Shown one piece after another: positions 52,002-63,459 of a DNA stretch of 64,000 nt; position 1 is the first letter of the stretch; every line of letters begins with the position of its first letter. The position numbers were made by a program, and so were the translations under genes. Under the pieces are notes generated by a model. It was not told the DNA's origin, did no database searches, and saw only the letters and a program-made list of their open reading frames with translations. Source of the stretch: Chitinophagales bacterium (GTDB lineage: Bacteria > Bacteroidota > Bacteroidia > Chitinophagales > JADIYW01); assembly GCA_017984135.1 (NCBI GenBank), contig JAGNZZ010000001.1, positions 119,801 to 183,800 on the forward strand. The letters are read 5' to 3'.

Positions 52002-53522
52002 TTAAAGCTTCTTAAATAATCCGCCAAATTCCATCATTTTCATCAAATCAGATACTTTTATTTTTCCGGACATAAATGCTTCTTGAGGATTCAATTTTCC
52101 TGTTTCAACAGCCACGTAAGTGGCATCATCGGTTTCTACGGTGCAGTCAACTGCAATTTGTCCACTATTCCCATTATTAATGATTTCTAAAATACCATCA
52201 TTTATAGATACAAAATACGTTGCTGAATCAAATTTAAATTCCATATTTAAATTTTTTCCTTTTGCTTTCTCTGTTTTAAATCGGGAAGGCAAAGTTTGAA
52301 AAACAGCCTCTACAGAATCTAATGAAGTATGTTCTTCTTTATTGATTGAAGTAGCTCTATCGTAGTTGGTATCATCAATAATCATTTTAGCTAAAATTTC
52401 TCTCATAATTTCTGAGGTTCCACCACCAATTGTTCCGATTCGAGAATCTCTGAATGCTCGTGCAATTTTAAAATCTTCCATATAACCATAACCTCCAAAA
52501 ACTTGTAGAATTTGATAGGCACATTTATCTGCTAATTCGGATGCTAACAGTTTAGAAATAGAACTTTCTTTTACAGCATATTTTCCTTCGTTATGCATTC
52601 TGCAAGTTTGTAATACATAGAATTTTATTGCTTCCGTTTCAGCGGCTAATTGTGCTACTTTGTGTCGCAGTACTTGAAATTTATTAATTGGACGACCAAA
52701 TGCATGTCTTTGACTCATATATTCCAATCCATATTGTATCATGCCTTCGCAAGCGGAATATCCCATGATTGAACCTGCTAATCGTTCTAATTGCAAGCCG
52801 CCCATTAAATAATAAAATCCTTTTCCTTCTTCGCCTAATAAATTTTTTGTTGGCACTTTTACATTATCAAAATGCAATTCTGCCGTGTCAGATGCATGCC
52901 AACCTAATTTTTTTAATTTGGTTTTAGATATGCCTTCACTATTTAAATCTACCACCAACAAACTTACGCCTGCTGCGCCAGCACTTGTGTTGGTTTTACA
53001 AACCAAGATTACAAAATGCCCGTAAACGCCATTAGTGATAAATGTTTTAGAGCCATTAACAACGTAGTAATCACCTTCTTTTATTGCGCGAGTTTGTATG
53101 TTAGCCACATCGCTGCCTGCACCTGGTTCTGTGATGCCAATACTGCCAATTTTTTCGCCGGCAATGGCAGCTTTGAAAAATGTTTCTTTTAAGTATTCAC
53201 TTCCATGATGTAAGATGTATGGACTGCTCATGCATACTTGTACGGCTGCCGTGATGGCAAAACCGCCAGAAAAGACTTTAGACACTTCTTCTAACATGAC
53301 AACAGTATAGAAAAAGTCGAGATTGCTTCCGCCATATTGCTCTGGAAAGCTGAGTCCGAAGTAACCCATTTCGCCAAATTTTTTCCAAAATTCACGAGGA
53401 ATTTTTCCATCTAATTCCCATTGGTCGATGTGAGGAACGGCTTCTGCTTTTAAAAAATCTTGAATGGATTTTCTGAACATTTCATGTTCTTCTGTAAAAT
53501 AGTAGGATAGTGCTGTTGACAT
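52002..53522 (-). CDS. Acyl-CoA dehydrogenase fused to a C-terminal SCP2 sterol-carrier-like domain (paralog 1)
   Basis: ACAD core to ~aa 385 (GITEPGAGSD..., GGYGYMEDF...IGGGTSEIM). The last ~110 aa (LPSRFKTEKAKG...LNPQEAFMSGKIKVSDLMKMMEFGGLF) are SCP2-like. Confidence 0.85.
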   Translation of the reverse strand: MSTALSYYFTEEHEMFRKSIQDFLKAEAVPHIDQWELDGKIPREFWKKFGEMGYFGLSFPEQYGGSNLDFFYTVVMLEEVSKVFSGGFAITAAVQVCMSSPYILHHGSEYLKETFFKAAIAGEKIGSIGITEPGAGSDVANIQTRAIKEGDYYVVNGSKTFITNGVYGHFVILVCKTNTSAGAAGVSLLVVDLNSEGISKTKLKKLGWHASDTAELHFDNVKVPTKNLLGEEGKGFYYLMGGLQLERLAGSIMGYSACEGMIQYGLEYMSQRHAFGRPINKFQVLRHKVAQLAAETEAIKFYVLQTCRMHNEGKYAVKESSISKLLASELADKCAYQILQVFGGYGYMEDFKIARAFRDSRIGTIGGGTSEIMREILAKMIIDDTNYDRATSINKEEHTSLDSVEAVFQTLPSRFKTEKAKGKNLNMEFKFDSATYFVSINDGILEIINNGNSGQIAVDCTVETDDATYVAVETGKLNPQEAFMSGKIKVSDLMKMMEFGGLFKKL

Positions 53523-53540
53523 GATAATTAAATAATTTAG

Positions 53541-53555
53541 TAATTAAATAATGTA
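53541..53555. repeat. Left arm of a perfect 15-bp inverted repeat flanking four-helix-bundle gene 1
   Basis: taattaaataatgta is the exact reverse complement of 53942-53956 (tacattatttaatta). A partial tandem copy lies at 53524-53537. Confidence 0.7.
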
Positions 53556-53563
53556 ATAATTAA

Positions 53564-53938
53564 TTAGTTTATTTTAATATTTAACTTTGAAGTTGATATT
53601 ATTTTAGTGAGTATTTTTCTAATTTCTAATAGTTTATCAATTAAATTTTGAGTATCAGGATAGGTATCAACTGCATTGCATATTTCTAACCAATATTCAG
53701 TTTCTTCCAATTCCTTTAATGCAATTTTTATTTTATGAATAAAATCATTTTTACTTTCAGCATTTTGTGCTTCTCTTACATTTGCACCAATTGATGTTCC
53801 TGATTTTAATAATTGATTTGAAATAATAAATTTTCTATTTGATTCTAATAATTCACAATACATGACTTTTTGAATTGAAAAATCAAAAGTCAATTTTAAT
53901 ATTGGATTGCTATTTTTTTCCATAATAGATTTTTTCAT
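53564..53938 (-). CDS. Four-helix-bundle protein (23S rRNA intervening-sequence protein family)
   Basis: SIGANVREAQNAESKNDFIHKIKIALKELEETEYWLEI, the family's hallmark. Confidence 0.85.
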   Translation of the reverse strand: MKKSIMEKNSNPILKLTFDFSIQKVMYCELLESNRKFIISNQLLKSGTSIGANVREAQNAESKNDFIHKIKIALKELEETEYWLEICNAVDTYPDTQNLIDKLLEIRKILTKIISTSKLNIKIN

Positions 53939-53941
53939 TCC

Positions 53942-53956
53942 TACATTATTTAATTA
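53942..53956. repeat. Right arm of the perfect 15-bp inverted repeat; overlaps the stop codon of ACAD-SCP2 paralog 2
   Basis: tacattatttaatta. Its last 3 nt (53954-53956, tta) are the TAA stop of the 53954..55480 gene. Confidence 0.7.
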
Positions 53957-55480
53957 TTTTATTGTTTCATTATTAAATTTTCGGAACAAAGTACCTAACT
54001 GCATCATTTTTCCTAAATCACTTACTTGAACTTTGCCACTCATAAATGCTTCTTGCGGATTAAGATTTCCTGTTTCAATGGCAATGTACGTTGCTTGGTT
54101 AGTAGTTACTATCAAGTCCACAGTTGACGGTCGACGGTCGACAGTGGACAAAGCAACTTGCTTGTTTTTTATTTGAACCCAATGATTTTTTTCATCTTCA
54201 AATTCAAACAACACATTCAACACTACTCCATCTGCTTTTTCTGTTTTTAATCTCGAAGGTAAACTATTGATGATATCATCAATGCTTACATCTTTAGATT
54301 GTGGTCGGTCGACTGTGGGCTGATAGCTTTTATCATCAATAACCATTTTCGATATAATCTCCAACATAATTTCTGATGTTCCACCGCCGATAGTGCCTAA
54401 GCGTGAATCTCGGAAAAAACGTGCCGCTTTGTATTCTTCCATATAACCATAACCACCAAACATTTGCAAACATTGATAGCCTAATTTATCAGATAATTCT
54501 GTGGCTAAATATTTTGACATAGAAGCTTCTTTAACGCAATATTTTTTCTCGTTATGCATTTGGCAAATTAAATAGGTATAAGTTTTTATACTTTCTAATT
54601 CTGCACTGAGTTGTGCCATTCGATGTCGCAAAACTTGAAATTTATTGATGCTTTTTCCAAATGCTTTGCGTTCACTCATATATTGCAAGGTGTATTGTAT
54701 CATTAATTCAGATGCAGCAATTGCTCCTAAGGCTAAGGTCAATCTGTCTAATTCAAAACGCTGCATGATGTAGTAAAATCCTTTGTTTGCTTCACCTAAT
54801 AAATTGGATATTGGCACTTCCACCTTATCGAATGCAATTTCTGCCGTATCACTGGCTTTCCAACCTAATTTTTTCAAATTATTTCTCGAAACACCTTTTG
54901 CATTTCCATCTACCAAAATCATAGATATACCACTTGCGCCAGAGTTGGCAGTTTTGCAAGCTACAATCATATAATCGGCTAAATAGCCATTGGTAATAAA
55001 ACATTTGCTTCCGTTGATGATGTATTTATCACCTTGTTGGATTGCTGTAGTTTTTATTCCGGCAACATCGCTTCCTGCGTGTGGCTCAGTAATGGCTAAA
55101 CATCCAACTATTTCTCCGGCAATGGCTTTATGTAAATATTTTTCTTTTAATTCGTCAGATGCTTCGTGTTTTAAATGCGACATAGACAAATATGGATGTG
55201 CGGAAATGCTTGCTGCAAAACCACCGCTCCAACATTTGCCTACTTCTTCAATAAAAATAACATCGTACCAAAAATCTAAATTAGAACCGCCGTATTTTTC
55301 TTCTTGCGTAATCCCAAAAAATCCCATTTCACCAAAACGCTTAAAAATTTCTCTGGGCAAAAATCCATCTTCTTCCCATTGGTCAATATTGGGTATTACT
55401 TCTTTATCCAAAAAATCGCGAAACGTTTTTCTAAATAATTGATGTTCCTCTTTTAAATAATATTGTTCTAAAATGCTCAT
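53954..55480 (-). CDS. Acyl-CoA dehydrogenase fused to a C-terminal SCP2 sterol-carrier-like domain (paralog 2)
   Basis: Same architecture as 52002..53522 (GGYGYMEEY...IGGGTSEIM; LPSRLKTEKADG...LNPQEAFMSGKVQVSDLGKMMQLGTLF). Confidence 0.85.
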   Translation of the reverse strand: MSILEQYYLKEEHQLFRKTFRDFLDKEVIPNIDQWEEDGFLPREIFKRFGEMGFFGITQEEKYGGSNLDFWYDVIFIEEVGKCWSGGFAASISAHPYLSMSHLKHEASDELKEKYLHKAIAGEIVGCLAITEPHAGSDVAGIKTTAIQQGDKYIINGSKCFITNGYLADYMIVACKTANSGASGISMILVDGNAKGVSRNNLKKLGWKASDTAEIAFDKVEVPISNLLGEANKGFYYIMQRFELDRLTLALGAIAASELMIQYTLQYMSERKAFGKSINKFQVLRHRMAQLSAELESIKTYTYLICQMHNEKKYCVKEASMSKYLATELSDKLGYQCLQMFGGYGYMEEYKAARFFRDSRLGTIGGGTSEIMLEIISKMVIDDKSYQPTVDRPQSKDVSIDDIINSLPSRLKTEKADGVVLNVLFEFEDEKNHWVQIKNKQVALSTVDRRPSTVDLIVTTNQATYIAIETGNLNPQEAFMSGKVQVSDLGKMMQLGTLFRKFNNETIK

Positions 55481-55498
55481 ATTTTCTCGTGATTTATT

Positions 55499-55590
55499 TA
55501 CCGCAAAGAGCGCAAAGGCTACCGCAAAGTTCGAAGAGGTTTATTTTTATAACCGCAAAGTATTTTAAGTTTTTCGCAAAGTTTTAAAGG
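55499..55590. repeat. CGCAAAG-motif repeat block (five copies), left flank of the GxxExxY gene
   Basis: cgcaaag at 55502, 55511, 55523, 55554 and 55575. The sub-block aaccgcaaag-N10-tttttcgcaaag (55551-55582) is mirrored at 56052-56083. Confidence 0.7.
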
Positions 55591-55591
55591 T

Positions 55592-55969
55592 TTATAATCC
55601 GTTTACTATTCTTTTTATTCCATGTTTTAAAAGGGTTACATTGAAATTTATTAATAAGCCAAGTTTGTAATTTCCAAGTTTTAAGTAAGTAAGCGTTTGT
55701 GCTAAATGAATGTCATTTAACGCTTCCACACTTTTTATTTCAATTACTAATTTTTCTTCCACCAATAAATCAATTCTATAACCGCAATCAAGTTTAACTT
55801 CTTCAAATAGTAATGGTATTGCTTTTTCTTTGTCAACTTTTAATCCTTCCTTTTTCAACTTATAATATAAACATTCTTGGTATGCACTTTCTAAAAGCCC
55901 AGGTCCTAATGCATTATGAACATCAATTGCTATACCTATAACAAAATGTGATAATTCATTTTCTTTCAT
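55592..55969 (-). CDS. GxxExxY protein (PD-(D/E)XK nuclease-fold family)
   Basis: GLLESAY motif and a D...E.K block (RIDLLVEEKLVIEIK), 125 aa. Confidence 0.85.
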   Translation of the reverse strand: MKENELSHFVIGIAIDVHNALGPGLLESAYQECLYYKLKKEGLKVDKEKAIPLLFEEVKLDCGYRIDLLVEEKLVIEIKSVEALNDIHLAQTLTYLKLGNYKLGLLINFNVTLLKHGIKRIVNGL

Positions 55970-56040
55970 TTTCTTCTATTATTACTTTGCTATAATTCCA
56001 TATTTGCTTTTTGCTATATAGTTGATAAATCATTTCAACT

Positions 56041-56083
56041 TACTTTGTGTCCTTTGCGAAAAATCTTTGAGCTCTTTGCGGTT
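56041..56083. repeat. Inverted CGCAAAG-motif arm, right flank of the GxxExxY gene
   Basis: Reverse complement reads aaccgcaaagagctcaaagatttttcgcaaaggacacaaagta, an imperfect inverted copy of 55551-55590. Both aaccgcaaag and tttttcgcaaag are exact. Confidence 0.65.
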
Positions 56084-56088
56084 AATGA

Positions 56089-56952
56089 TTAATTAATTGT
56101 TTTGATATTCAGCATTTCTCTTGTCTCAGAAATACTTGCAATTTCTCTGTCTAACATACGTGCTAATGTTGCGCCGGCTTCTACACATTCGCCGTTTGAT
56201 TTTGCCATTTCGCCATTGGGTAAGTAGAAATTATCTTCTAATCCAACTCGAAAATTTCCACCCATCGTACAAGCAATAGCAGCCAATTGCCATTGCTTTC
56301 TACTGATAGCAATCACTTGCCAAAATTCATTTTCCGGTACTTGCTTTATTTGATGCATTAAATTTTCTACTGTTGCAGGAATACCACCAAGCACGCCCAT
56401 TACTAAGCTGTAACATGCATTATCAGGAATTAATCCCATTTCTCGAAGTGGCACAACATTATGAATATGTCCGGTGTCGAAACATTCCATTTCCGGACAA
56501 ATATTATTTTCATTCATTGTTTTTACAACTTTAATCATCGTGTCAAAGGAGTTTTCAAAAACGGCATTCCAATAAAATTGTTTTTGTTTTTTGGAAAAGA
56601 TAGCATAGTTCATGCTGCCCATATTAAACGCTGCCATATCGGGTTTTGTAATCGGCAAATGCTTGATTCTTTCTTCTACGGAAAGACCGATTGCGCCTGT
56701 AGAAAAATTGATAATCACATCTGAAGAATGTTTGCGTACCTCCGCTTTAATTTCTTCAAATACTTCTGTTCGCCAACTTGGAATACCATTGTCTTCGCGC
56801 GCGTGAATGTGTACAATACTTGCGCCGGCATCTACTGCGCGTTTGGCTTCTTCACCTAATTCTCTTGGTGTGTATGGTATGGCAGGACAATGTGAACGGT
56901 TGGTGGCTGCTCCTGTGAGCGCTGCACTTAGTATTAGTTTTTTGTTTGACAT
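56089..56952 (-). CDS. Beta-keto acid cleavage enzyme family protein (BKACE; 3-keto-5-aminohexanoate cleavage enzyme-like, DUF849)
   Basis: LTGAATNRSHCPAIPYTPRELGEEAKRAVDAGASIVHIHAR, typical BKACE N-terminus, ~287 aa TIM-barrel size. Confidence 0.8.
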   Translation of the reverse strand: MSNKKLILSAALTGAATNRSHCPAIPYTPRELGEEAKRAVDAGASIVHIHAREDNGIPSWRTEVFEEIKAEVRKHSSDVIINFSTGAIGLSVEERIKHLPITKPDMAAFNMGSMNYAIFSKKQKQFYWNAVFENSFDTMIKVVKTMNENNICPEMECFDTGHIHNVVPLREMGLIPDNACYSLVMGVLGGIPATVENLMHQIKQVPENEFWQVIAISRKQWQLAAIACTMGGNFRVGLEDNFYLPNGEMAKSNGECVEAGATLARMLDREIASISETREMLNIKTIN

Positions 56953-56979
56953 TTATTTGATTTTTTTTGTTTATTTATT

Positions 56980-57140
56980 AACCGCAAAGTTTGCTAAGTA
57001 ATATATTCGCAAAGATTGCAAAGTTTTTATTTCTATTTTTCCATTTTTATATTAACCACAAAATATGCTAAGTTATTTCAAAGTATTCAAGATTTTCTAC
57101 AAGAACTTTGCGTAATTCTGAAACTTCGAGATTTGCGGTT
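56980..57140. repeat. Gene-less CGCAAAG inverted-repeat element (MITE-like or empty cassette)
   Basis: aaccgcaaag...ttcgcaaag...ttgcaaag (56980-57025) faces the inverted ctttgcg...tttgcggtt (57098-57140). A degenerate third copy lies at 57054-57090. No ORF lies between them. Confidence 0.6.
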
Positions 57141-57146
57141 AGTATT

Positions 57147-57971
57147 TTAATTTCCAATCCAATTTGGTTTTCGTTTTTCTTTGAATGCAGTTAAGCCTTC
57201 AGCTGCATCTTTACTTTGTAAACATTGCATCAACATAGCATGCAAATATTTGTGTTTTTCATCGGCATTTTTTGTTTTCATTTCTTGAAATGCTTTCAAG
57301 CCCAATCGTATGGCAGTAGGTGATTGTTCTTTGATTGCTGCAATTAATTCTTGTACTCGATTTTCTAAATTATCTGCAGTTACTACTTCAGAAACCAATC
57401 CGATTTCTTTTGCTTCACTTGCTGTCAATGTTTTAGCTCGAATGCATAAGTCTAACAGTTGGCGTGCCGACATTAAAGGCTCTAATGTTGCCATTACTTG
57501 AAATGGAAAAATGCCGCGTTTTACTTCAGGCAATCCAAATTTGGCTTCTTCAACGGCGATGACGTGTGTGCAACCACCAATCATTAAAAATCCACCGGCA
57601 TAAACATCGGCATGTACTTGTGCAATGCAAGGTTTATGTAAGCCGTTGAATTCATCGCCGAGTTTGACCATATCTTTTGGCATAGGTATGGTAGATTGTT
57701 TTTCGGCAGTGTTTTCACCAGCAAAGGCTTTTAAATCTGCACCGGCACAAAAGGTTGGTCCGTTGGCTTTGAGAACCACGCACCATATAGCATTGTTGTA
57801 ATGTGCATAAGCTAATGCGAATGCTAATTCATTTGCTAAAGGTGCGTGAAAAGCATTGCGTTTTTCCGGTCGATTGAGTGTGATGGTTAACACGTTTTCC
57901 TTTTCTTCGACAAGTAGGTAAGTAAAACTTTGTTCGTTGAAATTATGGATGTCTTGTTGTGAGTAGAGCAT
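57147..57971 (-). CDS. Enoyl-CoA hydratase/isomerase (crotonase) family; by context probably methylglutaconyl-CoA hydratase
   Basis: Crotonase fold motifs (FCAGADLK, GGGFLMIGGC-like, LPEVKRGIFP). Located between the MCC subunit genes and BKACE. Confidence 0.8.
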   Translation of the reverse strand: MLYSQQDIHNFNEQSFTYLLVEEKENVLTITLNRPEKRNAFHAPLANELAFALAYAHYNNAIWCVVLKANGPTFCAGADLKAFAGENTAEKQSTIPMPKDMVKLGDEFNGLHKPCIAQVHADVYAGGFLMIGGCTHVIAVEEAKFGLPEVKRGIFPFQVMATLEPLMSARQLLDLCIRAKTLTASEAKEIGLVSEVVTADNLENRVQELIAAIKEQSPTAIRLGLKAFQEMKTKNADEKHKYLHAMLMQCLQSKDAAEGLTAFKEKRKPNWIGN

Positions 57972-57976
57972 ATTTA

Positions 57977-58006
57977 TTTATGATTTATGAATTCAGATTT
58001 GAGATT
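57977..58006. repeat. 30-nt AT-rich element tttatgatttatgaattcagatttgagatt
   Basis: 28 of 30 positions match the reverse complement of 61253-61282 by manual alignment. Contains the palindrome TGAATTCA. Lies 6-35 nt upstream of the hydratase start. Confidence 0.6.
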
Positions 58007-58030
58007 AATTTATTCTAACTTTACTTTTCA

Positions 58031-58285
58031 TTTTTTTATGAGATTCCCTTTTACAAGGGAATGACATTTATATCTTAATGTAACCACGTCATTCTCACGA
58101 AAGTGGGAATCTTATTTTATTCCATTTTTATTTTCATTTTATATTTTTTTGAGATTCCCTTTTACAAGGGAATGACATTTATATCTTAATGTAACCACGT
58201 CATTCTCACGAAAGTGGGAATCTTATTTTATTCCATTTTTTCTTTTCATTTTTTTATGAGATTCCCTTTTACAAGGGAATGACAT
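58031..58285. repeat. 2.3 tandem copies of a 107-111 bp structured repeat, downstream flank of the GIY-YIG gene in gene orientation
   Basis: Anchor 'gattccc' at 58042, 58153 and 58260. Each unit has hairpin 1 (attccctt-ttac-aagggaat) and hairpin 2 (attc[t/c]cac-gaaa-gtgggaat). The third copy is cut after hairpin 1 by the gene's stop codon. Confidence 0.85.
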
Positions 58286-58636
58286 TTAATATCCAAAATA
58301 TTTTTTAGATTCATTATAATCTATTATATCCAATTCTGAATACCAATCAATCGCTAAATCTACTCTTTCTTTATTTATAGTATCAATTAATTCATCTTTC
58401 CATTTTCTATTCCATTTCTTTAATTGTTTTTCTCTTTCTATTGCGTTTGCCATATTATTAAACTCCTCGAAATAAATCAACTTTTTTATTTTGTATTTCT
58501 TTGTGAATACTGAACCATCGCCTTGTTTGTGCTGTAAAATTCTATACCATAAATAAGATGTGACACCAATATAAATTACATTACCAAAATTATTGGAGAT
58601 AATGTAAATACATGGATGTTTATTGTCTATTCTCAT
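58286..58636 (-). CDS. GIY-YIG nuclease-domain protein (small URI-domain type, COG2827/UPF0213-like)
   Basis: IYIISNNFGNVIYIGVTSYLWYRILQHKQG...FTKKY...LIYFEEF...AIEREKQLKKWNRKWK. Confidence 0.9.
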   Translation of the reverse strand: MRIDNKHPCIYIISNNFGNVIYIGVTSYLWYRILQHKQGDGSVFTKKYKIKKLIYFEEFNNMANAIEREKQLKKWNRKWKDELIDTINKERVDLAIDWYSELDIIDYNESKKYFGY

Positions 58637-58644
58637 GTTTAATT

Positions 58645-58845
58645 GTTTTTATAAGATTCCCTTTTACAAGGGAATGACATTTGTGTATTAATGTAACCAT
58701 GTCATTCCCACGAAAGTGGGAATCTTACTTTATTCCATTTTTTCTTTTCATTTTTTTATGAGATTCCCTTTTACAAGGGAATGACATTTGTATCTTAATG
58801 TAACCACGTCATTCCCACGAAAGTGGAAATCTTACATTATTTCAA
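58645..58845. repeat. Two further tandem copies of the same 107-bp structured repeat, upstream flank of the GIY-YIG gene
   Basis: Anchor 'gattccc' at 58655 and 58762, in the same orientation as the left block. The last copy runs up to the mccA stop codon (58846). Confidence 0.85.
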
Positions 58846-60861
58846 TCATTCTTTCATTTTTATCAATAACGTTCCGTTTTCTACAAATTGTTTTTCATTA
58901 ACATATATTTCTTCTACTTCGCCGTCGCTGTGGGCTTCAATGGTGCTTTCCATTTTCATAGAAATCATTTTTAATAAAGCATCGCCACTTTTTATTTTGT
59001 CGCCGGCTTTTACTAATACTGCCGTTATTTCGCCTGGCATGGGTGCAATGTATGCACCTTTTACTGTTTCTTCAATTGGACTTGGAAATTTATCTACACT
59101 AAACAAAACAATTTGCCCAAGTTGTGGTGAATGTATGAAATATTGATTACCGTTTTTAGAGAAGAAAAATTTTCGACGAATATTATTTATTTCAAAAGTG
59201 TGCCAATTGTTTCGGGATTTCTCTCTCGCCTTAAGCGAGATCGAATGAAGGTGCTCGTTATAGGTATGGTGTTTTGAAGCGAAATGTTTATCTGCAAATG
59301 AAATATGTAAATATCCGTTTTCGTTTTTGTATTCTACCAAAAATTCAAAGCCGTTAAAGCTGTATTTTTCTTGTTGCGCTTGATAGAAATTATTGCGCCA
59401 ACCTGCAGGAACGCCTTTTGCTAAGGATCTTTCATTTTCTCTTTGTAAAAAACGATAATGTTGCAAGGCACAAGTCAAAATATCCAAGGTTTCTTGCGGA
59501 TAATTTTCACCGGTATATTGGAATTTGTTATCCAAGAAATGCGTATCAAAATTTCCATTTTGGAAATCTTCGTTTTGTAATATAGATACTAAGAAATTTT
59601 TGTTTGTTGTAAAACCAGTTAAAACAGTTTCTTGCAATGCTAAAGTCAATTTAGCGATGGTTTCGTTTCTGTTTTTTCCTTTAGCAATTATTTTTGCAAT
59701 CATTGGGTCGTAGAAAGTTGAAATTTCTGAACCGCTTTCAATTCCGGTGTCATAACGCAAACCATCAATAGTTGCAGGTTGCCAATTCAAAATTTTTCCA
59801 CTTACTGGCATAAAATTGTTGGCTGCATCTTCGGCATATAAACGCACTTCAATAGCGTGTCCGTTTTGGGTAATTTCATTTTGTGTAAAAGGAATTGCAC
59901 TTCCTTGTGCTACTTCTATTTGCAATCGAACTAAATCTAAATGGGTAACTTCTTCTGTAACTGGATGTTCGACTTGCAAACGCGTGTTGACTTCCAAAAA
60001 ATAATAAGATTGGTCGTGAGTAACAATAAACTCTACTGTTCCAGCATTATCGTATTGAATAGCTTTACATGCAGCAACAGCCGCATCACCCATTTTTTTT
60101 CGTGTTTCTTCTGTGATAAAAGGAGATGGGCTTTCTTCTATTATCTTTTGATAACGCCGTTGAATACTACATTCACGTTCAAAAATATGCAATGCATTTC
60201 CATGTTTATCTCCAAAAATTTGAAACTCTATATGTCGAGCAGAATCGAAATATTTTTCTATTAAAAGTGTATCATCGCCGAAACCATTTAATGCTTCTGA
60301 TTTTGCTTCGGCAATGGCTTTGTCTAACTCTTTTTCTTCACACACAATGCGCATACCTTTACCGCCACCGCCAGCACTTGCTTTCAATAAAACAGGAAAT
60401 CCAATTTCAATTGACTTTGTTTTAATGGTTTCAATACTTTGGTCATCGCCTTGATAGCCAGGAATGGTTGGAACATGGTGTGCTTGCATAATTTTTTTTG
60501 CACCAATTTTAGAGCCCATCACTTCAATAGCTTTTGGATGAGGTCCAACCCAAATCATGTTTTCAGCTATCACTCGTTGAGCAAATTCAACACGCTCGCT
60601 CAAAAAACCATAACCTGGATGAATAGCATTTGCACCGGTTTTTTTTGCTGCATCCATAATTTTATCGATTATTAAATACGATTCATTCGGTTGCTTTCCT
60701 CCGATACGAACAGCTTCATCAGCGAGTTTAACAAACAATGCATTTTCATCCGCATCAGAAAAAACAGCAACAGTGGCAATGCCCATTTCTCTGCACGTTT
60801 TAAAAATCCTGCAAGCAATTTCCCCACGATTGGCAACTAATAATTTTTTTATTTTAGACAT
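58846..60861 (-). CDS. mccA: Biotin-dependent acyl-CoA carboxylase alpha subunit (biotin carboxylase plus BCCP), methylcrotonyl-CoA carboxylase type by context
   Basis: KKLLVANRGEIACRI start, ATP-grasp motifs, and a C-terminal biotinyl domain (SMKME). Confidence 0.85.
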   Translation of the reverse strand: MSKIKKLLVANRGEIACRIFKTCREMGIATVAVFSDADENALFVKLADEAVRIGGKQPNESYLIIDKIMDAAKKTGANAIHPGYGFLSERVEFAQRVIAENMIWVGPHPKAIEVMGSKIGAKKIMQAHHVPTIPGYQGDDQSIETIKTKSIEIGFPVLLKASAGGGGKGMRIVCEEKELDKAIAEAKSEALNGFGDDTLLIEKYFDSARHIEFQIFGDKHGNALHIFERECSIQRRYQKIIEESPSPFITEETRKKMGDAAVAACKAIQYDNAGTVEFIVTHDQSYYFLEVNTRLQVEHPVTEEVTHLDLVRLQIEVAQGSAIPFTQNEITQNGHAIEVRLYAEDAANNFMPVSGKILNWQPATIDGLRYDTGIESGSEISTFYDPMIAKIIAKGKNRNETIAKLTLALQETVLTGFTTNKNFLVSILQNEDFQNGNFDTHFLDNKFQYTGENYPQETLDILTCALQHYRFLQRENERSLAKGVPAGWRNNFYQAQQEKYSFNGFEFLVEYKNENGYLHISFADKHFASKHHTYNEHLHSISLKAREKSRNNWHTFEINNIRRKFFFSKNGNQYFIHSPQLGQIVLFSVDKFPSPIEETVKGAYIAPMPGEITAVLVKAGDKIKSGDALLKMISMKMESTIEAHSDGEVEEIYVNEKQFVENGTLLIKMKE

Positions 60862-61246
60862 ATTTTGATTTCAGATTTATGATTTCAGATTTATGATTTT
60901 TTTTAGCTTTTAGTGTTTTTAGAATAGCTGAAAATATAGCAGTTAATTCATTTGATTCTTTGATTAATTCTTCTAATCCATTTAATTTTGAATTTGTTTC
61001 TTCAAATAGTTCAACCCAATAAATACATTCATCTGCTTCTTCTTGAACAATATTTATTTTATTGATAAAATCTGGGTTTGATTTACCTCTTAATGCAGAA
61101 CGATAATTTGCACCAACGGATGTTGATGCTCTAACGATTTGTTTAATTATGATTACATTAGCATAAGTCGGTTTTATGTTTTCAGTAAATTTTATAGTAT
61201 TTACAGCAAATTTTTTTGTTCTATTTCGTAGTTCAATTGAGTTCAT
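60854..61246 (-). CDS. Four-helix-bundle protein (23S rRNA intervening-sequence protein family), copy 2
   Basis: SVGANYRSALRGKSNPDFINKINIVQEEADECIYWVEL. The 3' end overlaps the mccA start by 8 nt (TATGTCTAA). Confidence 0.85.
   Translation of the reverse strand: MNSIELRNRTKKFAVNTIKFTENIKPTYANVIIIKQIVRASTSVGANYRSALRGKSNPDFINKINIVQEEADECIYWVELFEETNSKLNGLEELIKESNELTAIFSAILKTLKAKKNHKSEIINLKSKYV
60866..60903. repeat. Perfect 14-nt tandem duplication (gatttcagatttat x2, plus a partial third) with a T-run
   Basis: Units at 60867-60880 and 60881-60894. They encode the last ~13 aa of four-helix-bundle copy 2. Related to 50395-50414, 10485-10510 and 57977-58006. Confidence 0.75.
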
Positions 61247-61252
61247 ATTATA

Positions 61253-61282
61253 AATCTTAAATCTGAATTCTTAAATCATAAA
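61253..61282. repeat. Inverted copy of the 30-nt AT-rich element
   Basis: Reverse complement tttatgatttaagaattcagatttaagatt versus 57977-58006. Lies between the mccB stop (61288) and the four-helix-bundle start (61246). Confidence 0.6.
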
Positions 61283-61287
61283 TTCAA

Positions 61288-62892
61288 TTACATTCTAAAC
61301 ACACCCCAAGCATTTGTTCCTTTTACTTCATTTATATAGGTTAATGCTAATATTAACCCAAATACATGTCGTGTATCTCTTGGGTCGATGATGCCATCAT
61401 CCCAAAGTTGACCTGTAGCAAAGAATGCATTACTTTGTTTTTCTATTTCCATTTTCATAAATTCTTTCATTTGTGTTGCTTGTGTTTCGTCGTATTGTTG
61501 ACCAGATTTAATAGCGGCTTCTTTGCTGACCATTTGCATGACACCAGCTAATTGTTCTGCACCCATAACCGCAATCATAGAGTTTGGATAGGAAAATAAA
61601 AAACGTGGATTATAAGCTCGACCGCACATCGCATAATTTCCTGCGCCATACGATGCGCCCATCATTAAAGTAAACATAGGTACTTCGGAATTAGAAACCG
61701 CATTAATCATCTTGGCACCATCTTTAATAATGCCACTTTGTTCGTAATCTTTTCCCACCATAAATCCTGTAATGTTTTGTAAAAATAGGATAGGTGTGTG
61801 GTTCATATTGCACAACTGAATAAAGTGTGCACCTTTGTTAGACGAATCATTAAATAAAACGCCATTATTTCCGATGATTGCAATAGGATAACCGTGAATT
61901 TTTGCATAACCGCAAACTAACGTAGTGCCATATTCTTTTTTAAACTCGTGAAACTCTGAACCATCTACTATGCGAGCAATTACTTCTCGGCAATCAAAAG
62001 GAACTTTAGTGTCCACAGAAACAATTCCGAGTAACTCGTCGATAGGATAATGAGGTTCTTTATAATTTTGAGATTTGAGATTTTGGATATGAGATTTTAA
62101 ATTTAGATTAGCCATTAATTCTCTTGCAATTCTGATTCCATCTAATTCATCTTGCGCTAAATAATCGGAAACGCCTGAAATTTTTGAATGCATTTCTGCT
62201 CCACCTAAAGTTTCATCATCTACAATTTCATTCGTAGCCATTTTTACTAATGGTGGTCCGGCTAAGAAAACTTTAGCATTGTTTTTAATGAAAATAGTAT
62301 AATCGCTCATACCTGGAATATATGCACCGCCGGCAGTTGAATTTCCAAAAACGATAGAGATCGTTGGCACACCTTGTTTAGAACGACGTGTAATTTCTTT
62401 GAAATTATTTCCACCTAAATTAAACACTTGTGCTTGGTCGGGCAAGTTGGCACCTGCACTTTCCACTAAACTGATTCCTGGTAAATTATTTTCTCGTCCA
62501 ATTTCTGAAATACGTAATGCTTTTTTCAAAGAAGCAATATCAATAGCACCACCTTTATTAGTGCCAACATTTGAAGTGATTAAACACATTTTTCCAGATA
62601 CAAAACCTATACCAGCAACCATAGTGCCACCTGTTCCAAAGCCACCTTTTACACCTAATCCTGCTAAAGGACATAATTCTAAAAATGGAGAATCTTGGTC
62701 GAGTAATAATTCTATTCGTTCACGGGCTAAGAACTTGCCTTGTGATTTCGCTTTAGTAGTATGTTTTTCATCTCCTTGAAATATGGATTGTTTGAGATGT
62801 TTTTCTAACTCAGCAATTTTATCAAGCATCTTAGAATAATTCTCTTTATATGATGCAGCGGTTGTATTTATTTTTGTTTTTATAGTGGACAT
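61288..62892 (-). CDS. mccB: Acyl-CoA carboxylase carboxyltransferase (beta) subunit, methylcrotonyl-CoA carboxylase type
   Basis: N-terminal region (GKFLARERIELLLDQDSPFLELCPLAG) resembles the MCC beta subunit more than PCC beta. Tandem crotonase-like CT domains, 534 aa. Confidence 0.85.
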   Translation of the reverse strand: MSTIKTKINTTAASYKENYSKMLDKIAELEKHLKQSIFQGDEKHTTKAKSQGKFLARERIELLLDQDSPFLELCPLAGLGVKGGFGTGGTMVAGIGFVSGKMCLITSNVGTNKGGAIDIASLKKALRISEIGRENNLPGISLVESAGANLPDQAQVFNLGGNNFKEITRRSKQGVPTISIVFGNSTAGGAYIPGMSDYTIFIKNNAKVFLAGPPLVKMATNEIVDDETLGGAEMHSKISGVSDYLAQDELDGIRIARELMANLNLKSHIQNLKSQNYKEPHYPIDELLGIVSVDTKVPFDCREVIARIVDGSEFHEFKKEYGTTLVCGYAKIHGYPIAIIGNNGVLFNDSSNKGAHFIQLCNMNHTPILFLQNITGFMVGKDYEQSGIIKDGAKMINAVSNSEVPMFTLMMGASYGAGNYAMCGRAYNPRFLFSYPNSMIAVMGAEQLAGVMQMVSKEAAIKSGQQYDETQATQMKEFMKMEIEKQSNAFFATGQLWDDGIIDPRDTRHVFGLILALTYINEVKGTNAWGVFRM

Positions 62893-63132: not shown

Positions 63133-63459
63133 ATGACAGCAAAAGAAATTGTATTAGGATTACCTAGCAGACTAAAATCAGAAGAATCTGCAGGACAAAG
63201 TGGAACCTTCCATTTTAAATTAGAAGGCGATAATGGAGGTGAATTTACAGTAACTGTAGCAGATGGTGTTTGTACAGTAGCAGAAGGTTTAAACGGAGAA
63301 GCTGATTGTCTAATCTCAGCATTAGCCAGCGATTTTGAAGATGCAGAAGAAGGACGTGTAAATAAACAAATGGCAGTAATGATGGGTAAAATTAAAATTA
63401 GTAATTTAGGAGCAATGCTTAAGTTTCTAGGAATGTTTAATGAAATAGAAGCAGCATAA
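63133..63459 (+). CDS. Stand-alone SCP2 sterol-carrier-like domain protein
   Basis: LPSRLKSEESAG...FHFKLEGDNGGEFTVTV...ADCLISA...MAVMMGKIKISNLGAMLKF. Same domain as the C-termini of the two ACAD fusions. Confidence 0.8.
   Translation: MTAKEIVLGLPSRLKSEESAGQSGTFHFKLEGDNGGEFTVTVADGVCTVAEGLNGEADCLISALASDFEDAEEGRVNKQMAVMMGKIKISNLGAMLKFLGMFNEIEAA

Follow-up and report, generated by a model that had tools for sequence, protein, structure and literature searches.

What fills the spacers of an operon in which no junction between enzyme genes is bare, and how did it come to be there? The question is raised by a 64,000-nt window of contig JAGNZZ010000001.1, from a Chitinophagales bacterium (Bacteroidota), in which an Atu/Liu-type acyl-CoA catabolic operon on the minus strand (52002–62892) carries six enzyme genes and has all five of its spacers filled with small genes or repeats. 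The initial annotation of the window had counted six occupied junctions; the occupancy stands, while six enzyme genes make five junctions. The small genes fall into three families, known as four-helix-bundle, GxxExxY and GIY-YIG. We propose, at a probability of roughly 70%, that miniature selfish cassettes of three unrelated families have colonized these spacers and come, go and pass among strains and species, each cassette being one small open reading frame (ORF) with family-specific terminal repeats. Four lines of evidence support an early suggestion that the small genes are selfish or mobile: presence and absence within species (L097 and L188–L197, where L and a number label a locus of a relative or a metagenome stretch), a patchy distribution on the MccB tree, gene-less derivatives, and the same units in unrelated operons.

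Organization of the operon

All ten minus-strand ORFs of the operon were confirmed at the coordinates of the initial annotation, and ORF coordinates, profile hidden Markov models (HMMs) and repeat searches agreed with its placement of ORFs, families and repeats. Families were assigned with Pfam and NCBIfam profiles, by which every small ORF belongs to the family named. From the first gene onward, the operon reads:

61288–62892, minus strand, acyl-CoA carboxylase carboxyltransferase subunit (MccB/AtuC-like; PF01039, E 1e-128), first operon gene
60854–61246, minus strand, four-helix-bundle gene 2 (PF05635/TIGR02436, E 3e-14)
58846–60861, minus strand, biotin carboxylase plus biotin carboxyl carrier protein (BCCP) subunit (MccA/AtuF-like; profile match)
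58286–58636, minus strand, single-domain GIY-YIG nuclease gene, Ssn-like (PF01541, E 8e-15)
57147–57971, minus strand, enoyl-CoA hydratase (crotonase; profile match)
56089–56952, minus strand, BKACE-family enzyme (profile match)
55592–55969, minus strand, GxxExxY PD-(D/E)XK ORF, 125 aa (PF13366/TIGR04256, E 2e-41)
53954–55480, minus strand, ACAD-SCP2 paralog 2 (profile match)
53564–53938, minus strand, four-helix-bundle gene 1 (PF05635/TIGR02436, E 5e-21)
52002–53522, minus strand, ACAD-SCP2 paralog 1 (profile match), last metabolic gene of the operon

Neither tblastn nor the family HMMs detected a further member of the three small-gene families in the other 53 kb of the window, in agreement with the first reading; small ORFs found there are ordinary (YraN, RRM, PadR, RNase H, HPPK). 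An assembly artifact or chimera was rejected, as the identical operon layout recurs in eight or more assemblies made independently from the same species. Assemblies of this species from wastewater-type metagenomes include GCA_035911035.1 and GCA_017985375.1 (Chitinophagales/Sphingobacteriales, uncultured).

Variation of junction contents between strains and species

Junction contents were compared with those of about 20 relatives, obtained from an MccB scan of species-representative genomes; their mccB orthologues, in Chitinophagales metagenome-assembled genomes (MAGs), are 78–91% identical to that of the window. Variation begins within the species. The conspecific stretch L097 is 99.6% identical to the window in both flanks and carries 183 nt where the window has its 874-nt GIY-YIG junction, with the gene absent. 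Its junction consists of the first hairpin fused directly to the last repeat unit, with breakpoints at the feet of two hairpins. Had the direct repeats crossed over unequally, a single clean unit would be expected, unlike this hairpin plus full unit; the product looks instead like breakage and joining at the two hairpin feet. In the L010 species, sister to that of the window, the hydratase–AtuA junction varies among strains L188–L197, which share one identical GxxExxY protein: in some it holds a four-helix-bundle cassette that is intact, in others a decayed version of it, and in others a CGCAAAG element with no gene. One strain of this set is without the second GxxExxY. Decayed cassette copies are seen in L195 and L194.

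Differences widen between species. L016 has bare spacers of 38–58 nt, L021 has a homolog of gene 2 as its sole small gene, and in L018 the GIY-YIG gene and gene 1 occupy the junctions that they occupy in the window, with no GxxExxY and no gene 2. Other mixes, including further four-helix-bundle and GxxExxY genes, occur in L010, L013, L020, L038 and L043. Gene-less repeats also stand in other junctions, namely a CGCAAAG element (L007, mccB–mccA), inverted repeats of heptamer arrays (L017) and a solo hairpin (L021). Junction content is incongruent with the MccB tree: the nearest relatives of the window are without the GIY-YIG gene and gene 1, both of which are present in the more distant L018. 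Insertion-site polymorphism was thus found when looked for in related operons, whose junctions are empty, differently occupied or filled.

Genes of other kinds are also found in the junctions of relatives: two ORF6N genes, an Mrr_N-HNH endonuclease, two PIN genes and a PBECR3 nuclease. Such foreign genes lie at L010 14583–15648 and 18477–18950, L020 13916–14632, 18460–18933 and 19615–19995, and L043 11651–12661, all co-oriented. The PIN genes have small upstream ORFs and PBECR3 has a partner; these are of selfish or defense type. In one relative a cytidine deaminase gene is wedged between AtuA and AtuA_ferredoxin.

Placement, orientation and selection

Across the window and 18 Chitinophagales loci, 15 of 16 family hits fall inside the operon, which makes up 36% of the bases; these loci are orthologous and hence non-independent, so that active targeting of the operon is not claimed. 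The idea that the cassettes home to operon spacers does not stand as first worded: selection against other insertion sites, and spread by recombination through the conserved flanks, would produce the same pattern. Exact-protein look-ups with the GIY-YIG and GxxExxY proteins of the window returned the studied operon only, with no second locus.

All 15 operon inserts are co-oriented with the operon, as are all 10 inserts in other contexts with their neighbors. Inserts begin 0–5 nt past the stop codon of the preceding gene, the A-rich leader of the following one is undisturbed, and no junction contains a sense-strand terminator-like site; with this placement, the inserts are probably read through at little cost to the host. 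A terminator or promoter role for the repeats was rejected on the same absence of terminator-like sites and on sigma-70-like hits, which are at shuffle level in a scan that does not represent Bacteroidota promoters. Integron cassettes were likewise rejected, as there is no integrase and repeats stand on both sides of each ORF.

Purifying selection acts on the ORFs, with dN/dS of 0.07–0.14 for GxxExxY and 0.21–0.23 for the four-helix-bundle genes. Cassette dS against relatives is 0.76–0.90, compared with 1.1–2.5 for the flanking enzyme genes, a difference which suggests that the cassettes have been exchanged more recently than the genes around them.

The GxxExxY element

Two features of the window belong to this class:

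55498–56085, minus strand, complete GxxExxY element, 588 bp, with ends TTAACCGCAAAG ... CTTTGCGGTAA
56979–57141, unstranded, gene-less GxxExxY-element derivative or derivatives, with outer ends TAACCGCAAA and TTTGCGGTTA (reverse complement)

An inverted repeat of 22 nt (91% complementary) surrounds the GxxExxY gene. The left arm of the window element has five CAAAG and no CTTTG and the right arm five CTTTG and no CAAAG; the window has 15 CGCAAAG sites, 13 of them within 55500–57110. The gene-less sequence at 56979–57141 has an additional inner end, TTTTGTGGTTAA, which suggests that it comprises two abutting fragments. Besides the mccB–mccA junction of L007, gene-less copies occupy the ECH–AtuA junction of L188 and L189.

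Eight elements of 458–588 bp, from four orders, were delimited at six junction types, two of them junctions of the operon under study. Those outside it separate helicase and SprT genes in Pedobacter lithocola, a response regulator gene and recA in an Ignavibacteriales MAG, and mod and res in a Flavobacteriia MAG. The termini TTAACC(G/A)CAAAG ... CTTTG(C/T)GGTTAA are present in 8/8, and arm polarity is strict throughout (2–5 CAAAG and no CTTTG on the left, 2–7 CTTTG and no CAAAG on the right). The extreme ends are palindromic (TTAA or TAA). There are two end subtypes, in two junctions, and copies within one genome likewise occupy two junctions, both in the studied operon. In a predicted RNA or single-strand fold of the window element, the ends pair around the ORF (z −3.5).

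The GxxExxY protein family is very large: clustered at 90% identity it exceeds 8000 clusters, a figure limited by the scoring cap, and clustered at 50% identity it has 19,682 representatives (E ≤1e-3). It is also unusually conserved, its members being 77–92% identical across Chitinophagales, Cytophagales, Flavobacteriia, Sphingobacteriales and Ignavibacteriales, for which MccB identity falls to 60–66%. The G..E..Y motif, D67 and E77-x-K79 are invariant in the family alignment. Searches of the PDB by sequence and by profile returned no related solved structure, and an AlphaFold2 model built with 37 close homologs reached a pLDDT of 53.7, too poor for fold comparison. Viral contigs contained no relative of the window's GxxExxY subfamily and so give no sign of a phage-borne origin. 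The literature on GxxExxY gives its function only as 'unknown', with no description of the element found, and the CGCAAAG end motifs returned primer matches only; the element with its defined ends appears to be new.

The GIY-YIG gene and its hairpin arrays

The GIY-YIG protein (116 aa) matches PF01541 over residues 8–80, with no second domain, and PDB 1YWL (UPF0213) with E 1e-4. Tandem Repeats Finder places an array on either side of its gene:

58638–58861, unstranded, upstream array, 2.1 copies of a 107-nt double-hairpin unit
58005–58293, unstranded, downstream array, 2.7 copies of a 111-nt double-hairpin unit

Each 107–111-nt unit holds two NTS-like hairpins, GTC-ATTCCC-N8-GGGAAT-C, one per strand, and folds far better than shuffles; the first downstream hairpin begins 2 nt past the GIY-YIG stop codon. 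Cores of the form GTCATTCCC-N8-GGGAATC (≤2 mismatches) number nine, all within 58042–58831, compared with 0.01 expected, and four lie upstream and five downstream within 500 bp of the gene. Rfam assigns no family at gathering score, giving only sub-threshold miRNA hairpin models on the repeat units.

Small GIY-YIG proteins of a single domain, with NTS hairpins on either side of their genes, have been described as Ssn (Chenal et al., Nat Commun 2025, PMC11893778). The NTS, CGTCATTCCCGCGMAVGCGGGAATCYRG, includes the dRS3 sequence ATTCCC-N8-GGGAAT; Ssn proteins bind and cut single-stranded DNA (ssDNA) adjoining the hairpin, and in Neisseria SsnA makes transformation with NTS-flanked DNA less efficient (PMC11893778). 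Compared with the 28-nt NTS, the hairpins of the window agree at 23/28 and 20/28 positions, with two of the differences forming a compensatory stem pair, and they retain the GTC and C that were critical in the Ssn study. Additionally, Y11, Y22 and E69 of the window protein are spaced as the catalytic Y6, Y17 and E64 of SsnA. The gene and its hairpins are thus a probable, divergent member of the Ssn/NTS class, which is already published in kind (2025).

The pairing of gene and hairpin recurs in other taxa. L018 has an 82% GIY-YIG homolog at the identical junction, with the same repeat arrays, and the homologs of L018, L203, L164 and L181 all adjoin the same hairpins, some of them in other gene contexts. 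The hairpin GTCATTCCCTTG(C/T)AAAAGGGAATC is present in 87 metagenome stretches (within L101–L187) from widely differing habitats and of widely differing GC contents, mostly solo or paired with an opposite-strand hairpin, and its N8 stem extension covaries between copies; only about 8 of the 87 have a GIY-YIG gene beside it. The three families were initially thought to be essentially undescribed in their biology. This still appears to be true of GxxExxY and is partly so of the four-helix-bundle class (PMC4990558, PMC10053308), and does not apply to GIY-YIG (Ssn/NTS, PMC11893778).

The four-helix-bundle genes and their heptamer arrays

Both four-helix-bundle genes of the window are bracketed by inverted repeats:

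53942–53956, unstranded, upstream 15-nt arm of gene 1, TAATTAAATAATGTA, its first TAA being the ACAD2 stop codon
53541–53555, unstranded, downstream 15-nt arm of gene 1, TACATTATTTAATTA, the inverted-repeat partner
61252–61290, unstranded, upstream arm of gene 2, a heptamer array (period 7) that pairs with 60861–60899 (39 nt, 79%)
60861–60899, unstranded, downstream arm of gene 2, ATTTATGATTTCAG x2.8, coding for the C-terminal tail of gene 2

When these repeats were scored against 300 dinucleotide shuffles, 0/300 reached the score of either gene; the stems are A/T-rich and weak. Inverted arrays of degenerate 7–8-nt tandem repeats surround every copy examined, nine array-flanked genes plus one in Rhodocytophaga, and the unit sequence differs from copy to copy. 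Class-specific flanking repeats were proposed at the outset for all three families; those of the four-helix-bundle genes share a style and differ in sequence. The repeat around the gene in L021 is a perfect 23/23, and in Rhodocytophaga rosea, where the array is (CATTTTCA)x7, a four-helix-bundle gene separates two CoA-transferase subunit genes. No relevant paper turned up when the literature was searched for an association of short tandem repeats with four-helix-bundle genes.

Gene 1, which matches PDB 2RLD with E 2e-22, has a 74–77% homolog at the same junction in L018; in L192 a sequence similar to TACATTATTTAATTA stands upstream of ACAD1 with no gene there. Gene 2, whose stop overlaps the mccA start by 8 nt, has a 62% homolog at the same junction in L021 and is absent from L016, L007, L011, L018 and L038. 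A similar AAATCTGAAATC array or leader lies upstream of mccA in relatives that lack gene 2. Downstream-arm sequence is thus present in part even where the gene is missing, in the case of gene 2 and possibly in that of gene 1. Gene 2 is also without the conserved Glu of the motif G..R...S...N..E (ANYRS instead of AN..E), and its tail is encoded by heptamer-array sequence, so that it could be a copy in the course of divergence. At 57972–58005, immediately upstream of the start of the hydratase gene, AAATCTGAATTCATAAATCATAAAT is an opposite-orientation near-copy of the gene 2 upstream arm (61259–61283) and may represent a solo arm.

The four-helix-bundle class comprises the 23S rRNA intervening sequence (IVS) protein and the Avd homolog of diversity-generating retroelements (DGRs) (PMC4990558, PMC10053308). 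The 23S rRNA IVSs are selfish elements with an S23p ORF, the bordering stem of which is cut by RNase III (PMC4990558), and cas operons are on record in which PF05635 genes stand between cmr genes (PMC3936711). Judged by its sequence, the apparently IVS-like architecture of the four-helix-bundle genes is an extension of a known idea to mRNAs. A DGR was rejected, as no reverse transcriptase is adjacent.

The enzyme genes in relatives

The gene order common to relatives is mccB-mccA-hydratase-(BKACE or AtuA)-ACAD-ACAD. The slot of BKACE (56089–56952 in the window) is taken in other close relatives by AtuA and AtuA_ferredoxin, and occupancy by one or the other splits L007, L010, L013, L017, L020, L038 and L208 from L011, L016, L018, L021 and L204. 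This distribution is patchy on the MccB tree, the sister taxa L038 and L011 being unlike. An Atu-like operon may therefore be a better description than a plain leucine (liu) operon, and recombination appears to have made it a mosaic.

Tandem heptamers also occur in frame within two enzyme genes: TTTGAGA x6 in mccB (62067–62109), encoding NLKSHIQNLKSQN, and AGTCGAC x5 in ACAD2 (54115–54150), encoding STVDRRPSTVD. These loops are hypervariable among relatives, and L021 has related peptides (PSTIDHRPSTV) in MccB and in the loops of both ACADs. The coding-loop heptamers resemble the arrays beside four-helix-bundle genes and are reminiscent of in-frame Rickettsia palindromic elements. Upstream of the operon, a divergent stand-alone SCP2 gene (63133–63459), additional to the SCP2 domains fused to both ACADs, is kept in place in most relatives (71–86% identity). 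Three relatives show irregular operons. In L016 (10899–11041) ACAD-SCP2 paralog 2 is reduced to short remnants and looks degraded, in an otherwise compact operon; in L038 (10001–11616) mccB extends across two reading frames, a frameshift or a long-read assembly error; and in L043/L204 (contig JAXLTY010000001.1, 477–507 kb) an opposite-strand gene block breaks the operon after mccA, with hydratase-BKACE-ACAD-GxxExxY-ACAD following the break.

Possible mechanism and alternative explanations

If the spacers have been colonized by selfish cassettes, these would have no promoter of their own and would be co-transcribed with the operon, their ORFs being expressed by read-through from its promoter. 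A placement nearly harmless to the host would allow them to persist. The GIY-YIG cassette would spread through cleavage of ssDNA at its hairpins, as for the characterized Ssn homologs, and the GxxExxY cassette through recognition of the CAAAG arrays by its PD-(D/E)XK protein. The conserved enzyme genes on either side would act as homology arms, so that cassettes could spread by recombination, and the inverted ends may permit RNase III-type processing of the RNA at the stems, as in rRNA IVSs. A mobilization step for the GxxExxY and four-helix-bundle cassettes is one that we infer, as is what makes this operon favored. A bolder proposal, which we regard as tentative and rather doubtful, is that GxxExxY with its TTAA polar-array ends constitutes a minimal autonomous mobile element (~0.5 kb) mobilized by its own nuclease, that the four-helix-bundle genes are a generalized 'IVS' residing in mRNAs as well as rRNA, and that these two, with Ssn/NTS, form a guild specialized on the nucleotides after operon stop codons, expressed by read-through and spread through the flanks.

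Several observations weigh against the cassette proposal. Near-identical alleles yielded no clean empty site, and accordingly no target-site duplication is defined for any class; the L097 allele may be a deletion instead of a pre-insertion state; and the enrichment statistics rest on orthologous, non-independent loci. Part of the four-helix-bundle arms may be native leader or relict. For the GIY-YIG class, the published degenerate SRM pattern has 0 matches on either strand of the window, the hairpin stems having A/T at positions where the pattern wants S/B/R. Other such points concern shared positions: the GIY-YIG gene and gene 1 hold the same junctions in the window and the distant L018, and the closest GxxExxY homologs (83–92%) all lie in the same operon of other Chitinophagales. 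Long vertical residence with repeated loss could explain much of this pattern.

Taken to its limit, that last thought makes the small genes old passengers that entered an ancestral operon once, were inherited vertically and have come to differ by deletion only, through repeat recombination or slippage. We consider this unlikely. The shared junctions of L018 and the confinement of the closest GxxExxY homologs to this operon fit it well, as does the position of GxxExxY upstream of ACAD2 in the window, L010, L038 and L208, whereas gene-less copies with the same ends in different junctions, and two end subtypes in two junctions, do not. Cassette proteins diverge much as the flanking genes do, yet dS in the cassettes reaches about half the value seen in those genes, and the same GxxExxY element occurs in unrelated operons of other orders at ~80% protein identity, against 60–66% for MccB. 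L097 is compatible with deletion, although its product is not what unequal crossing-over would give; and the decayed copies of L195 and L194, natural in passengers, are to be set against strong purifying selection on the ORFs.

That selection could also be read as service to the host. The proteins and repeats would then tune the operon, perhaps by processing or stabilizing parts of its polycistronic mRNA at the inverted-repeat stems, or would limit recombination of incoming DNA at the locus, as SsnA and NTS do in Neisseria, and with PIN, HNH, PBECR3 and ORF6N genes would make up a small defense or anti-transfer island. The pairing of the GxxExxY element ends in the predicted RNA fold, the folding of the hairpin units well beyond shuffles, the lowered transformation by NTS-flanked DNA (PMC11893778) and the defense or toxin type of the junction genes in relatives are all consistent with such a role. 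We nevertheless judge it very improbable, as the composition is unfixed, the conspecific L097 has no GIY-YIG gene, the same cassettes stand in recA, restriction-modification and CoA-transferase operons, and no functional link joins the three families. The narrower suggestion in the initial annotation of a functional module of the operon is not supported, as relatives keep the enzymes and run the operon with empty junctions (L016) or different inserts.

Should the cassette proposal be true, two of the largest 'function unknown' families of small bacterial proteins would gain a concrete, testable identity: both the four-helix-bundle family and GxxExxY (~19,700 clusters at 50% identity) would serve as cargo in miniature elements whose ends are defined, and perhaps as their engine. 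Were the GxxExxY protein to recognize CAAAG arrays, it might prove, as Ssn did, to be a sequence-specific nuclease of very small size. The locus provides natural filled and empty alleles, as well as gene-less copies, for the design of mobilization and cleavage assays. It also indicates that operon spacers of Bacteroidota can be hotspots of strain-level variation, which is relevant to metagenome binning and strain typing, that cassette genes should not be annotated as operon members, and how selfish DNA can last without breaking transcription units.

Comparison with known systems

A close parallel is Ssn/NTS, which shares with the window a single-domain GIY-YIG protein of ~100 aa with oriented hairpin repeats on either side, the hairpin core GTC-ATTCCC-N8-GGGAAT-C, and solo hairpins that far outnumber the gene in metagenomes. 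SsnA comes from Neisseria meningitidis, whereas the host here belongs to the Chitinophagales; the window stems are A/T-substituted, and the hairpins form two-hairpin units of 107–111 nt, in tandem arrays within an operon spacer. The dRS3-bounded NIMEs of Neisseria are similarly intergenic tandem units of 50–150 nt, delimited by ATTCCC-N8-GGGAAT hairpins at variable loci. In the window, from another phylum, the array surrounds a nuclease gene of its own and is set between putatively co-transcribed genes.

The four-helix-bundle cassettes recall the 23S rRNA IVSs of Leptospira and Coxiella (PMC4990558), in which a PF05635 ORF is bracketed by complementary, stem-forming termini and which are sporadic, horizontally spread and sense-oriented in a highly transcribed unit. 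IVSs lie in helix 25 or 45 of 23S rRNA, whereas the window copies lie between protein-coding genes; their arms, unlike those of IVSs, are 7–8-nt tandem arrays that differ per copy, and their ORFs are under purifying selection while the Coxiella IVS ORF is decaying. DGR Avd belongs to a homologous four-helix-bundle fold family (PF05635/cd16375); the neighbors in the window are mccB/mccA and two ACAD genes, with no reverse transcriptase or template/variable repeat adjacent.

The GxxExxY element resembles terminal-inverted-repeat transposons and miniature inverted-repeat transposable elements (MITEs) in keeping its terminal inverted repeats across copies and in having gene-less derivatives at other sites. 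With MITEs, IS200/IS605 TnpA and the REP-RAYT 'REPtrons' it shares the plan of a tiny single-ORF element (an enzyme of ~125–150 aa) with structured or inverted ends and many intergenic gene-less derivatives. Its protein has a PD-(D/E)XK fold, in contrast to the HUH or DDE enzymes of minimal insertion sequences; its ends, also unlike theirs, carry several polar CAAAG sub-repeats and a TTAA terminus, and its mobility is putative. Finally, the seg and mob genes of T-even phages are free-standing homing endonuclease genes, and I-Ssp6803I is a homing endonuclease of PD-(D/E)XK fold. Like such genes, the nuclease genes of the window are wedged between conserved, putatively co-transcribed genes, are present or absent among close relatives (L097, L188–L197) and would spread via flanking homology. 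Unlike seg and mob, they reside in a bacterial chromosome and possess their own terminal repeats and gene-less derivatives, beyond what homing alone yields.

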